From IMG/VR virus record IMGVR_UViG_3300029512_000078: a DNA stretch of 4,488 nucleotides, one strand, 5' to 3'. The notes beneath the pieces were generated by a model. The model was not told the origin of the DNA and made no database searches. It saw only the letters and a program-made list of their open reading frames with translations. Positions 1,803 through 4,247 of the stretch are shown here, piece by piece (the stretch's first letter is position 1; each line of letters opens with the position of its first letter). The position numbers and the translations under genes are program-made. Source of the stretch: a virus (lineage: Duplodnaviria > Heunggongvirae > Uroviricota > Caudoviricetes).

Positions 1803-2186
1803 ATGCGTGATATTCAGATGGTTCTTGAACGCTGGGGTGCATGGGCGGCAAATAATCATGAGGATGTGACCTGGTCGTCCATTGCTGCCGGTTTTAAGGG
1901 ATTAATTCCTTCAAAAGTAAAATCTCGCCTGCAATGTTGTGACGATGACGCGATGATCATTTGCGGGTGCATGGCCCGTCTGAAAAAGAACAACAGCGAT
2001 TTACACGATTTATTAGTAGATTATTATGTATGTGGTATGACATTCATGTCACTGGCAAGTAAGCATTGCTGCTCGGATGGTTATATCGGGAAAAGGTTAC
2101 AGAAGGCTGAGGGCATAATTGAAGGGATGTTAATGACATTAGATATCCGGTTAGATATGGATATCGTTGCTAATAATTCTAATTGA
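1803..2186 (+). CDS. quuD: Late-gene transcription antiterminator Q (phage 82 / DLP12 QuuD-like family)
   Basis: 127-aa product [26 protein letters not shown]...[16 protein letters not shown]...[17 protein letters not shown], recognised as Q82-family antiterminator with Cys-rich Zn-binding motifs. ATG at 1803 is preceded by GGAG (1792-1795) at 7-nt spacing; the ORF-track start at 1788 is a TTG and less likely. Symbol is by resemblance to the E. coli K-12 DLP12 gene; the upstream genes differ from K-12 DLP12, so locus identity is uncertain. Confidence 0.8.
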
Positions 2187-2209
2187 TATGCAATTGTTTA
2201 CTAAAAGTT

Positions 2210-2237
2210 ATTAAAAATGGGGCGTGGAAACGCCCCC
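2210..2237 (-). terminator. Candidate intrinsic terminator for minus-strand transcripts (7-bp GC stem, GNRA-like loop, U-run)
   Basis: Plus strand GGGGCGT-GGAA-ACGCCCC (2219-2236); on the minus strand the hairpin is followed by ATTTTTAA (complement of 2211-2218). On the plus strand no T-run follows, so it is unidirectional for the minus strand. Lies about 150 nt downstream of the porin stop, across an N-gap. Confidence 0.45.
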
Positions 2238-2280
2238 AAAATAAAGGGTAATATATAACAGAAGGTTTATATAGTAAGAA

Positions 2281-2311
2281 NNNNNNNNNNNNNNNNNNNN
2301 NNNNNNNNNNN
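2281..2311. other. Run of 31 undetermined bases (N)
   Basis: Directly visible in sequence; content unknown. Confidence 1.
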
Positions 2312-2333
2312 AAGTGGCTTGAGGGCTCCACTT

Positions 2334-2374
2334 ATATGTTGCGGAGGCAAAGCCTCCCGCAACATATCTTTTTC
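2334..2374 (+). terminator. Rho-independent terminator for plus-strand transcripts (candidate tR'-like late terminator downstream of Q)
   Basis: ATATGTTGCGGAGGC-AAA-GCCTCCCGCAACATAT forms a roughly 15-bp stem with one bulged C, followed on the plus strand by CTTTTTC (2368-2374). On the minus strand the hairpin is preceded by an A-run and not followed by a T-run. A shorter hairpin AAGTGG...CCACTT (2312-2333) lies immediately upstream. Confidence 0.6.
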
Positions 2375-2384
2375 GTAAGTCAGA

Positions 2385-3467
2385 TTAGAACTGATAAACC
2401 AGACCTACAGCGGCGATGTCGTCGGTATCAATACCAGCTGTTTTGGTAAACTTACTATCGTCAATTAAGTTGATTTTGTAATCAACAAAAGTGGACATGT
2501 TTTTATTAAAGTAGTAAGTAGCACCGACATCGACATACTTGACTAAGTCTCGGTCACCATGAACACCAAGGTCTTTACCTTTTGACTGAAGGTAAGCAAC
2601 AGATGGGCGCAGACCGAAGTCAAACTGATATTGTGCTACTGCTTCAAAGTTTTGTGCTTTGTTTGCAATATGGTTATTACCAAAAACGGTCATATTCTGA
2701 GTTTCAGAATATGTGGTAGCCAGATAGATATTGTTCGCATCATATTTCAGGCCTGCAGCCCATACTTCCGCATTTTTGCCGGAGGCATTGAATTTGCTCT
2801 TACCATAGGCGACCTGACCGTCAGTGCGATCTGATTTAGCATAGGTTGCACCCACGCCGAATCCTTCATACTCATAAGTAGTGGAGAAACCGAAACCATC
2901 ACCATTGGCTTCAGTTACGTCAGTGCGGTCATTTTTACCCTGATACTGAGCAGCAAAGTTCAGGCCATCGACCAGACCAAAGAAGTCGTTGTTACGATAA
3001 GTTGCAACACCAGTTGCACGTTGAGTCATGAACACGTCGGTTTGAGTCCAAGTGTCACCACCGAATTCTGGCAGGACGTCAGTCCACGCACCGATGTCGT
3101 ATGCTACACCGTAGTTACGGCCGTAATCGATGGAGCCGTAGTCACCGAATTTCAGGCCAGCGAAGGCAAGACGGGTTTTATCTTTGGAGGAACCTTGAGA
3201 TTCAGCGCGGTTGCCTTTGAATTCATATTCCCACTGACCGAAACCAGTCAGTTGATCGTTGATTTGGGTTTCACCTTTGAAGCCAAGACGGGCATAAGTA
3301 GTATCACCATCATCTGCATCATTAGAGGAGAAGTAGTGCTTAGCATTAACTTTCCCGTACAGATCCAGCTTGTTACTGTCTTTATTATAAATTTCAGCTG
3401 CCTGAGCAGACATCGCCATCAGTACTGATGCAGCTACAGCAGAAATTGCCACTGTTAATTTTTTCAT
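2385..3467 (-). CDS. nmpC: Outer-membrane general porin (OmpC/OmpF/PhoE/NmpC family), prophage-encoded moron
   Basis: 360-aa product starting [23 protein letters not shown] (signal peptide, AQA-AE cleavage) then [17 protein letters not shown]..., contains the L3 constriction motif PEFGG and ends in the OMP beta-signal ...VGLVYQF. The ORF-track N-terminal extension to 3527 ([11 protein letters not shown]...) is rejected in favour of ATG 3465-3467. Symbol by analogy with the DLP12 porin located between quuD and essD; could equally be another prophage porin paralog. Confidence 0.9.
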
Positions 3468-3737
3468 CGTGAGCCCTTTTTTTGAACTATTATTAAAAAA
3501 TGATGTCACTGCGCGATAAATATTCATCTAATCAATGTGATTATTTCAAGATGTAAGTTTTGGTTTCTCGTTTGATTTGTGAAGTAGATCTCTATTTTTA
3601 TCTGAACTTTTTTCTATCGAATCCTATTCATGGCTCTTGGCTGAATAAAAATAAATCTATTAGCCAATTTATATTAATGTCTGTTATTTATAAGTGCTCT
3701 ATAATTTGAAGGTTCAATTTAAACCGGCTAAAAATAA
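3468..3737 (-). promoter_or_regulatory. AT-rich upstream region of porin gene (promoter/5'UTR; likely binding sites for nucleoid or porin regulators)
   Basis: About 270 bp of strongly AT-rich DNA with many A/T tracts immediately upstream of the porin start on the minus strand. Exact -35/-10 not assignable because too many near-consensus hexamers occur in such AT-rich DNA. Confidence 0.4.
3700..3705 (+). promoter_or_regulatory. Perfect TATAAT -10 hexamer on plus strand (candidate late promoter pR'-like or divergent promoter); weak -35
   Basis: TATAAT at 3700-3705; the best -35 at 17-bp spacing is poor (ATGTCT). A transcript starting near 3712 would end at the 3887-3919 terminator after about 200 nt, similar in length to lambda 6S RNA (194 nt). 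Chance occurrence in AT-rich DNA is quite possible. Confidence 0.25.
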
Positions 3738-3747
3738 NNNNNNNNNN
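3738..3747. other. Run of 10 undetermined bases (N)
   Basis: Directly visible in sequence. Confidence 1.
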
Positions 3748-3828
3748 GGTTATTTGTTGAGATTTGCTTATGTATTTGTAGTGGTGTTTTCAATACTCGG
3801 TAGCATTCTCGCAAATATCATTTAGTGG

Positions 3829-3842
3829 TTTACGTACGTAAA
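3829..3842. repeat. 14-bp perfect palindrome TTTACGTACGTAAA (candidate operator for a dimeric DNA-binding protein)
   Basis: Sequence 3829-3842 is its own reverse complement. It overlaps a weak plus-strand promoter-like arrangement (TTTACG, 16 bp, TATGCT at 3851-3856). Confidence 0.35.
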
Positions 3843-3886
3843 AAATTGGTTATGCTATTAAGAGTGGTCACTTCGTCACACAGCTT

Positions 3887-3919
3887 AAACCCGCCGTCGA
3901 GCGGGTTTTTCCATTTTTT
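3887..3919 (+). terminator. Rho-independent terminator on plus strand upstream of holin gene (second tR' candidate)
   Basis: AAACCCGC-CGTCGA-GCGGGTTT stem-loop (3887-3908) followed by TTCCATTTTTTG (T-run to 3919). Confidence 0.6.
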
Positions 3920-4031: not shown

Positions 4032-4247
4032 ATGAAATCCATGGATAAGTTAACAACGGGTGTCGCCTATGGCACCTCAGCAGGTAGTGCCGGATACTGG
4101 TTTTTACAGCTGCTAGATAAAGTCACGCCCTCACAGTGGGCGGCAATTGGAGTGCTGGGTAGCCTGGTATTTGGCCTGCTGACGTACCTGACAAACCTTT
4201 ATTTCAAGATTAAAGAAGATAAGCGCAAGGCTGCGAGAGGTGGATAA
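4032..4247 (+). CDS. essD: Class II holin (phage 21 S21-type pinholin) with dual-start motif
   Basis: 71-aa product [71 protein letters not shown], with two TM segments and a charged C-terminus, closely resembling S21/EssD as recalled. Met1-Lys-Ser-Met4 gives starts at 4032 and 4041 (antiholin S71 / holin S68 arrangement). SD GAGGTG at 4021-4026. Confidence 0.9.

Follow-up and report, generated by a model that had tools for sequence, protein, structure and literature searches.

The quuD-porin locus

The window, a stretch of 4,488 nucleotides from the Caudoviricetes record IMGVR_UViG_3300029512_000078, is a lambdoid late region of the DLP12/PA-2 type, in which quuD on the plus strand is followed by a minus-strand lc/nmpC-type porin gene and then by essD and rrrD. 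This gene organisation, with the late switch located beyond the porin, is already known. The gene quuD (1803-2186, plus strand; RefSeq name quuD) encodes a Q antiterminator belonging to the Q21/933W family. Its product covers the full profile of Pfam family PF06530 (E 2.6e-53) and matches the Q21 structures 6p18/6jnx in the PDB (E 1.4e-6), and by these matches QuuD is a distant homolog of Q21. Over amino acids 1-120 it is 80% identical to the Q protein of phage Sp5. The likeness to the Q proteins of 933W and Sp5 stops at codon 120 (window position 2162), and the last seven quuD codons are therefore assigned to an inserted segment. With 127 amino acids against 144, QuuD has a C-terminus that was either truncated or replaced by the insertion.

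The porin gene (2385-3467, minus strand) was identified by Pfam Porin_1 (E 1.5e-151), carries the RefSeq name 'porin OmpC' and is homologous to lc of PA-2 and nmpC of DLP12. It is intact, whereas nmpC in the DLP12 prophage of K-12 is split by IS5. Its AT-rich upstream region (3468-3828, minus strand) makes up the right-hand end of the insertion and contains TTATTTGTTG direct repeats as well as a masked run at 3738-3747, in which 10 N stand for 18 real nucleotides. CRP sites are annotated in the porin upstream region of the PA-2 record. Likeness to phages without the porin begins only at about 3828-3833. The Q gene thus appears to have been separated from its late promoter by the insertion, in reverse orientation, of a moron of approximately 1.66 kb (about 2163-3828).

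Lambdoid morons are reportedly, after Hendrix and colleagues, cargo placed between phage genes and transcribed independently of them. The segment found here resembles them in being AT-rich, reversed cargo that lies at a gene boundary and brings along a promoter region and a terminator of its own, and also in that differing minus-strand cargo occupies the same junction between Q and pR' in other phages. Such cargo was found between Q and the pR' block in WGPS2, PhiR55_1, SfII and Klebsiella phi9.1, and in phage 569R4 a minus-strand gene lies just upstream of the block. The present insertion differs from such morons in that it alters the C-terminus of Q and in that the tail next to its terminator acts as a regulatory RNA.

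The spacer downstream of quuD

The spacer that separates quuD from the porin stop codon very probably represents the 3' tail of the inserted, backward-facing porin gene and encodes the known small RNA IpeX, with pR' placed beyond the porin. IpeX is a 167-nt RNA of DLP12/PA-2 that is made within the porin transcript (PMC12197685, PMC5069750, PMC8065619), and it represses OmpC and OmpF of the host (PMC12197685, PMC5069750, PMC8065619, PMC7177473). For this RNA, PMC12197685, PMC5069750 and PMC8065619 cite Castillo-Keller, Vuong and Misra 2006. In the window the ipeX region (2387-2211, porin strand) directly follows the lc/nmpC-type porin reading frame as the 3' untranslated tail of the mRNA, beginning with the stop codon (2387-2385) and ending in the U-tract of a minus-strand terminator. 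After replacement of a masked run by the real sequence (see below), its length from stop codon to U-tract is about 165-167 nt. The ends of IpeX on this locus are presumed, in part from EcoCyc and for the rest from secondary literature; we infer where precisely the RNA starts and stops, how it is processed and that it is expressed in the present strain.

Over its 188 nt the spacer shares 93.2% identity with the DNA downstream of lc in PA-2 (J02580), and a 271-nt query spanning it showed 92.5% identity to DLP12 of K-12 MG1655. Position after the lc/nmpC stop codon, strand and terminator are the same as in DLP12 (qsr') and PA-2, at a sequence identity of 92-95%. An alignment of eight alleles yielded a mean column identity of 95%, and the differences from known IpeX loci concern the bulge of the first stem-loop, the length of the second stem and the terminator loop. 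Of the records in the phage collection, 36 contain the spacer, and equally many contain 80% or more of the entire Q-porin-holin stretch; among complete E. coli genomes the spacer is present in 2501 of 5426 (~46%). Prophage remnants that have no Q still keep it beside the porin; across the sequences compared, the spacer occurs only with the porin.

The predicted minus-strand fold of IpeX (-47.9 kcal/mol, z -5.05) consists of several elements. SL1, the 5' stem-loop (2334-2374, minus strand), is a 15-bp bulged hairpin that begins 17 nt past the porin stop codon, and it is followed by SL2 (2312-2333, minus strand; AAGTGG ... CCACTT) and by a small internal hairpin in the masked region. Next comes a single-stranded core (2238-2272, minus strand) that is identical in all eight alleles. 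The 3' end is formed by SL3, the intrinsic terminator of the porin/IpeX transcript (2211-2236, minus strand), called as GGGGCGTTTCCACGCCCC + ATTTTTAATA at 2236-2219; its stem occupies 2236-2219 and runs into ATTTTTAA at 2218-2211 (the tract is also given as AUUUUUAA). The SL3 stem is invariant among the alleles and its loop is variable. This terminator, which the earlier note had missed, is the sole one called in the spacer by a consensus terminator scan of both the window and the unmasked sequence. Compensatory pairs were not detected among the eight alleles by RNAalifold (zero), which are too similar for covariation to be seen.

In a lysogen, transcription from the porin promoter would proceed through the porin stop codon and end at the minus-strand terminator with its U-tract. 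The last ~165 nt of this transcript would be freed by processing as IpeX, laid out as SL1 (2334-2367), the second hairpin, the small internal hairpin, the invariant core and the terminator. IpeX would then lower OmpC and OmpF, and the phage porin would take the place of the host porins.

Most annotation pipelines pass over this RNA: the K-12 RefSeq record consulted lists micC and not ipeX, Rfam contains no IpeX family, and no ipeX coordinates were found in publication supplements. A scan of the whole window against Rfam at E<=1 returned two sub-threshold chance matches, sau-19 at the hairpin 2334-2367 and Trp_leader at that of pR'; ARAGORN detected neither a tRNA nor a tmRNA.

The 31 N at 2281-2311, which the earlier note had recorded and wished to see unmasked, could be replaced by real sequence. 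Nine E. coli genomes match the query 1788-2420, which spans the run, at 100% of the non-N bases; in one of them (L001) the run corresponds to the 21 nt GTAAGGTAGTGCTTCTAAAGG. The mask consequently does not preserve length. The recovered bases are ordinary, promoter-free sequence, and the idea that a promoter is concealed under the N-run was rejected; the proposal that pR'/qut lies hidden there is not supported, given also that the spacer is dissimilar to the pR' regions of phages of the same Q clade. A promoter scan found no sigma-70-like -35/-10 pair on either strand of the masked spacer, and none in positions 2860-3130 of L001, where 1.0 was expected. The earlier note had seen no convincing -35/-10 pair between 2187 and 2280; the absence of a sigma-70 promoter from 2187-2330 holds for both strands in the window and in the unmasked copy. 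The -10-like hexamers TAATAT (2249-2254) and TATAGT (2270-2275) are indeed present and fall within the invariant core of IpeX, of which they represent the complement.

The late promoter

The late promoter pR' was located on the far side of the porin (3829-3856, plus strand), with a -35 element TTTACG (3829-3834), a 16-nt spacer and a -10 element TATGCT (3851-3856). Both hexamers match the consensus at four of six positions and stay under the scan threshold. The segment 3829-3917 aligns with PR' of the Stx2 phage Sp5 (VT2-Sakai), where the annotated 'putative late promoter' reads TTTACG-16-TATCAT and PR' directly follows Q; the start site of Sp5 PR' was mapped by dRNA-seq (PMC7547250). Since 3829-3917 is homologous to this mapped promoter, the second alternative of the earlier note, a displacement of pR'/qut beyond the porin, is correct. 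The same note had named a pR'/qut homolog at 3700-3880 as an outcome that would speak against a Q-proximal promoter, and this is essentially where the homolog lies. The pR' block occurs in 80 phage records, including porin-less ones, whose likeness starts at the -35 element.

The late transcript start region (3857-3917, plus strand), with an inferred start at about 3863, comprises a conserved initial transcribed region and a tR'-like, promoter-proximal hairpin (3887-3908, with a T-run to 3917; plus strand) that was called by the terminator scan. From the -10 element to the hairpin the block is nearly invariant in nine phages; the hairpin stem itself differs among the nine and is in each case self-complementary by eye. 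Judged by its sequence, the hairpin is a putative terminator of uncertain efficiency. The homologous hairpin of Sp5 is located at +27..+50, and the Sp5 transcript passes it and runs 258 nt to a second terminator (PMC7547250), which the window does not contain. No clear -10-like pause hexamer could be assigned in the pR' cassette. The first late gene downstream of pR' is essD (4032-4247, plus strand; RefSeq essD), which encodes a holin (PF04971, E 2e-35). The late switch of QuuD would accordingly consist of pR', the conserved initial transcribed region and the hairpin (3887-3917), followed by essD.

The cassette shares TTTACG, the 16-nt spacing and TATnnT with PR'-qut-tR' of the Stx phages 933W and Sp5, the source of the StxS sRNA (PMC7547250), and compared with Sp5 its initial transcribed region is nearly identical and its first hairpin homologous. 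In contrast, the Sp5 cassette abuts and overlaps the end of Q, whereas the present one lies 1.64 kb away from it beyond the porin. The body of StxS and the second terminator are also missing from the window, and essD consequently follows only 115 nt after the hairpin. The logic of a Q gene, a constitutive promoter and a promoter-proximal terminator is common to pR'/qut/tR' of lambda with its 6S RNA and to pR' of phage 21 (PMC6606751, bioRxiv 10.1101/651190), although in the present locus the cassette is not adjacent to Q. A Q-binding element between -35 and -10 is likewise common to these systems, and here only a candidate can be proposed: the palindrome TTTACGTACGTAAA (3829-3842, plus strand), the type of which co-varies with the Q clade. 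The Q21 element of phage 21 is a TGAGCA direct repeat spaced by 8 bp, while the candidate is a perfect 14-bp palindrome; the WGPS2-type palindrome is AACGCGTACGC. This change with the Q clade points to the palindrome as the element bound by Q proteins of the 933W/Stx-phage family, which are of medical relevance. For annotation, it follows that in DLP12/PA-2-type prophages, present in approximately 46% of complete E. coli genomes, the late switch should not be sought beside Q, and that the DNA behind Q is part of a porin cargo in reverse orientation and of a regulatory RNA.

Alternative readings of the spacer

The hairpin at 2334-2367 consists of ATATGTTGCGGAGGC-AAA-GCCTCCCGCAACATAT and is followed by C-TTTTT-C at 2368-2374. 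As a DNA palindrome it folds equally well on both strands, with -21.9 kcal/mol as plus-strand RNA (shuffled sequences -8.3 +/- 2.2 kcal/mol; z -6.25, 0 of 200) and -22.5 kcal/mol as minus-strand RNA (z -4.97). The earlier note had described 2334-2374 as a plus-strand terminator 150-190 nt downstream of Q. Hairpin and T-run are real; the distance is 148-188 nt as masked and, with 21 nt in place of 31 N, 138-178 nt past the Q stop codon. The identification as tR', however, was wrong, as the element is the 5' stem-loop of IpeX. The reading that pR'/qut resides in 2187-2330, partly under the N-run, and gives rise to a short 6S-like plus-strand transcript terminated at 2334-2374 is almost certainly incorrect. 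It was suggested by the lambda-like position just downstream of Q, the hairpin with its T-run and the two -10-like hexamers, yet these hexamers belong to the invariant anti-ompC core of IpeX and the unmasked sequence offers no -35/-10 pair. Examined as a late-control cassette, 2187-2374 had no plus-strand sigma-70 promoter and did not align with PR' of Sp5, the phage whose Q is 80% identical, whereas 3829-3917 is homologous to the PR' mapped for this Q clade and has its promoter followed by a plus-strand terminator upstream of the lysis genes. The record count of the spacer, equal to that of the Q-porin-holin stretch, also argues against a Q-linked control region. Little more can be said for the view that the palindromes are generic extragenic (REP-like) elements or recombination scars devoid of RNA function. 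One survey does list ipeX as REP-containing (PMC12306157) and covariation for the hairpins is absent, but a 30-nt pattern that runs from the 3' half of SL1 into the beginning of SL2, scanned against species-representative genomes, matched this locus only (three contigs from E. coli, plus one that is apparently a contaminant). The constant linkage of the spacer to the porin and the published phenotype of IpeX (PMC5069750, PMC3617542) likewise make this view highly improbable.

A second use of SL1 would be compatible with its role in IpeX. Because the hairpin folds equally well on both strands, it may have a plus-strand function, and it could weakly terminate transcription that reads through from Q. 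A stronger version, in which 2334-2374 serves as a plus-strand intrinsic terminator that stops unmodified RNA polymerase leaving quuD, appears possible though rather unlikely. Such a terminator would shield the porin from antisense read-through and would leave the Q mRNA with a 3' tail fully complementary to IpeX. The strong plus-strand hairpin with CUUUUUC behind it, the AU-rich stem base that together with the run gives about 7 U in 10 nt, and the lack of any other plus-strand terminator between quuD and the porin speak for this version. Set against the intrinsic-terminator criterion of a G+C-rich hairpin with a U-tract of ~7-8 nt directly behind it, on the other hand, the hairpin is strong and the tract is only C-U5-C, and it is not conserved, with 3-4 T in other alleles (CTTTTAG, CTTTGAG, GTTTTAG). 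The consensus scan did not call the plus-strand hairpin, as its stem is bulged and its run has only 5 T. Furthermore, all stem positions are explained equally well by the minus-strand RNA. In lambda, polymerase that arrives from pR during lytic growth is already termination-resistant, and by this analogy polymerase leaving quuD would be as well. A bidirectional terminator was rejected, since the minus strand continues with AAGUGG and has no U-tract. Should Q transcripts stop at SL1, one might speculate that their 3' tails would contain a perfect decoy for IpeX.

Relation of IpeX to ompC and MicC

The invariant core of IpeX is antisense to positions -32..-2 of the ompC mRNA, including the Shine-Dalgarno sequence, and contains a MicC-like seed. 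A duplex of 27 bp and -26.7 kcal/mol, spanning -32..-2, is predicted between the core and the ompC initiation region; one of 2000 dinucleotide shuffles equalled it. Full-length RNAduplex predictions of IpeX against 160-190-nt porin 5' regions produced whole-molecule duplexes and are meaningless, which is why local-window tests were used. Among 5582 local windows scanned across the locus, the core ranked first for pairing with ompC. The plus strand of the core aligns to the ompC leader, as did none of 500 shuffles. The match to ompF is weaker (-18.7 kcal/mol, equalled by 5% of shuffles) and did not rank first when the locus was scanned. The original abstract on IpeX reportedly states that Hfq is required only for ompF, and the weaker match might account for this need. 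For cross-species covariation of the IpeX-ompC pairing, the 30-nt pattern scan provided no sequences beyond E. coli and the one apparent contaminant contig.

The chances are about even, on these pairing predictions, that IpeX acts as a MicC-like antisense RNA whose core resembles an inverted copy of an ompC-type leader and forms the 27-bp duplex that includes the Shine-Dalgarno sequence. The core has the same seed, GUUAUAU..CCUUUAUU, as MicC (E. coli micC, b4427), and its predicted target overlaps the part of the ompC leader bound by MicC; beyond the seed there is no homology between the two RNAs. While the seed is located at the 5' end of MicC, it is internal in IpeX, where the predicted duplex extends over the Shine-Dalgarno sequence. 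IpeX also differs in being derived from a 3' UTR and borne by a phage, and reviews state that it does not base-pair with ompC (PMC3617542). If the antisense proposal is true, ordinary antisense control would replace the 'novel mechanism' of IpeX and would account for the exchange of host porins by the phage.

Identity of the spacer between quuD and the porin

The window is the Q-to-lysis part of a lambdoid prophage. On the plus strand it encodes a KilA-N protein (123-788), a DUF968/HNH protein (790-1785) and the 127-aa Q antiterminator QuuD (quuD, 1803-2186; Pfam PF06530, E 2.6e-53), followed by a complete minus-strand porin of the Gram-negative type (3467-2385; Porin_1, E 1.5e-151) and a plus-strand P21-type holin (4032-4247), after which the lysozyme gene starts. 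The non-N bases of positions 1788-2420 were matched at 100% in nine complete E. coli genomes, and RefSeq names the genes of the matching genomes quuD, 'porin OmpC', essD and rrrD. The gene organisation is shared with phage PA-2, which has lc as its porin, and with the cryptic K-12 prophage DLP12, whose nmpC is interrupted by IS5.

The 188-nt spacer between quuD and the porin is 93.2% identical to the DNA downstream of lc in PA-2, a 271-nt query across it is 92.5% identical to DLP12 of K-12 MG1655, and an alignment of eight spacer alleles has a mean column identity of 95%. Judged by these identities, the spacer is the gene of IpeX, a 167-nt RNA of DLP12 and PA-2 that arises within the porin transcript, driven by the porin promoter, is processed free and lowers both OmpC and OmpF (PMC12197685, PMC5069750, PMC8065619, PMC7177473). 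Between the porin stop codon and the U-tract, the unmasked RNA measures 165-167 nt, and the minus-strand RNA of the spacer folds with -47.9 kcal/mol (z -5.05). From its 5' end, this RNA consists of stem-loop SL1, 17 nt past the porin stop codon, SL2 (2312-2333), a small hairpin beneath the masked run, an AU-rich stretch and the terminator SL3. The only element of the spacer accepted by the terminator scan is GGGGCGTTTCCACGCCCC followed by ATTTTTAATA (minus strand, 2236-2219), which the earlier note had overlooked. The K-12 RefSeq record (NC_000913.3, 574340-574528) holds no ipeX feature, though ncRNAs such as micC are annotated in it, and Rfam 15 holds no IpeX family; the RNA therefore escapes annotation in almost half of E. 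coli genomes, the spacer being found in 2501 of 5426 complete ones.

The spacer was detected in 36 phage-collection records, PA-2 and 434B among them, and the same number contain 80% or more of the full Q-porin-holin stretch. It is also kept beside the porin in decayed remnants without an annotated Q gene; the spacer co-travels with the porin and not with Q. Two such remnants lie between ybcM and yedK: one (NZ_LR778142) retains the porin and the entire ipeX spacer, and in the other (NZ_CP148423) about half of the spacer is left and an IS3 element separates it from the porin. These remnants hint that the porin module is kept to the benefit of the host. The SL1/SL2 sequence of E. coli IpeX also occurs on a 442-bp contig assigned to 'Streptomyces alkaliterrae' (NZ_VJYK02000722.1), which is almost certainly contamination of that assembly.

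The masked runs and the hairpin downstream of quuD

The earlier note had read positions 2187-2374 as a control region next to Q, with a tR'-like terminator and with pR'/qut either partly hidden in an N-run or displaced past the porin. Its two -10-like hexamers and the N-run were located where it had placed them, and its failure to find a -35/-10 pair in the spacer was reproduced on both strands. The 31 N of 2281-2311 stand for 21 real nucleotides, GTAAGGTAGTGCTTCTAAAGG, in L001, an E. coli genome with 100% identity to the unmasked spacer and its flanking sequence, and the stretch has equal length in all eight alleles examined; the N-runs are thus not length-preserving. The second mask, 3738-3747, replaces 18 nucleotides by 10 N, and window distances that cross the masks are off by -10 and +8, respectively. 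Once unmasked, the spacer shows no promoter-like site, and the suggestion that pR'/qut is partly buried under the N-run has to be abandoned.

The hairpin itself (2334-2367, followed by CTTTTTC) is real: as plus-strand RNA it folds with -21.9 kcal/mol (z -6.25), and none of 200 shuffles did as well. Because it is a DNA palindrome, it folds equally well on either strand. It is not tR' but belongs to the porin-tail RNA as SL1 of IpeX. On the plus strand it might still halt unmodified polymerase on its way out of quuD, 10 nt short of the porin stop codon, and the stability of the fold would suit such a role; its T-tract, however, is short and unconserved, with five T here and only three or four in other alleles, and the terminator scan does not call it on the plus strand, so that a significant role of this kind appears rather unlikely. 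A minus-strand terminator was ruled out, as AAGUGG follows in that direction. The features reported in the earlier note are real but ordinary: with high confidence, the region is the ipeX/3' UTR end of the porin moron, the N-run hides nothing and the late promoter has been displaced to 3829-3917. The ipeX/porin-moron explanation is already known.

The late promoter beyond the porin

In Stx2 phage Sp5, the end of Q runs into the annotated late promoter (TTTACG, 16 nt, TATCAT), downstream of which lies a hairpin. According to dRNA-seq, the PR' start precedes the tR' 3' end by 258 nt (PMC7547250); counted back from the second terminator in the Sp5 sequence used here (L003; genome versions differ), this distance would place it 6-7 nt past TATCAT. 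The Sp5 late cassette aligns with window positions 3829-3917, giving a plus-strand -35 TTTACG (3829-3834), a 16-nt spacer, a -10 TATGCT (3851-3856) and, downstream of it, the nearly invariant block TTAAGAGTGGTnACTTCGnCACACAGCTTAAA, and then a hairpin (3887-3908, T-run to 3917) that the scan accepts as a plus-strand terminator. This bears out the displacement past the porin, an outcome which the earlier note had itself named as speaking against a late promoter next to Q. The pR' block is present in 80 phage records, porin-less ones included, and in porin-less phages similarity to the window starts at about 3828-3833, at the -35.

The Sp5 homolog of hairpin 3887-3908 lies at +27 to +50 and resembles a good terminator. 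The reported StxS precursor from Sp5 PR' is nevertheless 258 nt long and extends to a second terminator (PMC7547250). No second terminator precedes essD in the window. The promoter-proximal hairpin (window 3887-3917; Sp5 2983-3005) is conserved across phages with varying stems, each self-complementary by eye. In the old GenBank entry for PA-2, window 3863-3883 (J02580.1, 1067-1087) is marked as a CRP binding site; it falls on the conserved initial transcribed region of pR' (GTCAC-TTC-GTCAC), and this annotation may need reinterpretation. Direct repeats of TTATTTGTTG with 11-bp spacing, partly under the second mask, occupy window 3750-3759 and the masked bases that precede it (L001 4450-4470); two degenerate copies, ATTTGCTT and ATTTGTAG, extend to L001 4492. 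Relative to the pR' -35, the array is 40-90 bp upstream, and it precedes the porin start by about 280-320 bp.

The inserted segment and a candidate Q-binding element

QuuD is distantly homologous to Q21 (PDB 6p18, E 1.4e-6) and shares 80% identity with the Q of Sp5/VT2-Sakai/933W over residues 1-120. This similarity ends at codon 120 (window 2162), and similarity to porin-less phages resumes at the -35, which delimits an inserted segment of about 2163-3828. The last seven QuuD codons (2163-2186) are supplied by the porin segment; Sp5 Q has 144 aa as against 127 aa in QuuD. The Q of phage PhiR55_1 (121 aa) is cut at the same point. In WGPS2, PhiR55_1, SfII and Klebsiella phi9.1, unrelated minus-strand cargo genes separate Q from the conserved pR' block, and 569R4 carries a minus-strand gene just upstream of the block. 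From this varied cargo, the Q/pR' junction appears to be a recurrent slot for moron insertion.

A perfect 14-bp palindrome, TTTACGTACGTAAA, spans the pR' -35 and spacer (3829-3842). The palindrome varies by Q clade: it is TTTACG(TA/AT)CGTAAA in the QuuD/933W clade (window, K-12, Sp5 and, with one mismatch, PhiR55_1), AACGCGTACGC in WGPS2, SfII and Klebsiella phi9.1, whose Q proteins are 46-48% identical to QuuD, and GCGGAATTCC in phiP27 (Q 47% identical). Phage 569R4, classed here by its palindrome only, has one of the AACGCGTACGC type. An invariant AAAAA follows each type. In lambda and phage 21, the Q-binding element lies between -35 and -10 (PMC6606751), a position that makes the palindrome a candidate Q-binding element here; the symmetry differs, as the phage 21 element is a direct repeat of TGAGCA.

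Predicted pairing of the IpeX core with ompC

The minus-strand segment CTATATAAACCTTCTGTTATATATTACCCTTTATTTT (window 2238-2272), which includes the complements of the two -10-like hexamers, is identical in all eight alleles and has variable flanks. It is predicted to form a duplex with positions -32 to -2 of the K-12 ompC mRNA that covers the Shine-Dalgarno sequence (27 bp, one G-U, -26.7 kcal/mol). Only one of 2000 dinucleotide shuffles was as good, and the duplex ranked first among all 5582 windows of 42 nt taken from the two strands of the 5.6-kb locus (mean -11.9, sd 3.7). When the ompC leader was aligned to the spacer plus strand, none of 500 shuffles reached the score. The core also has the 5' seed of MicC in common (MicC, taken from the K-12 annotation, GTTATAT-GCCTTTATT; IpeX, GTTATATATTACCCTTTATT). 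Pairing with ompF was weaker (-18.7 kcal/mol; 5% of shuffles as good), no pairing was found with the phage porin's own leader, and the spacer has no sequence similarity to the ompA leader.

This complementarity contradicts the published description. The original IpeX abstract reportedly found no complementarity. Reviews state that IpeX does not base-pair with ompC or ompF (PMC3617542). Exact complementarity extends over no more than 10 nt at a stretch, which a BLAST search with the default word size of 11 would miss. The antisense pairing is a prediction and a lead, not a demonstrated mechanism.
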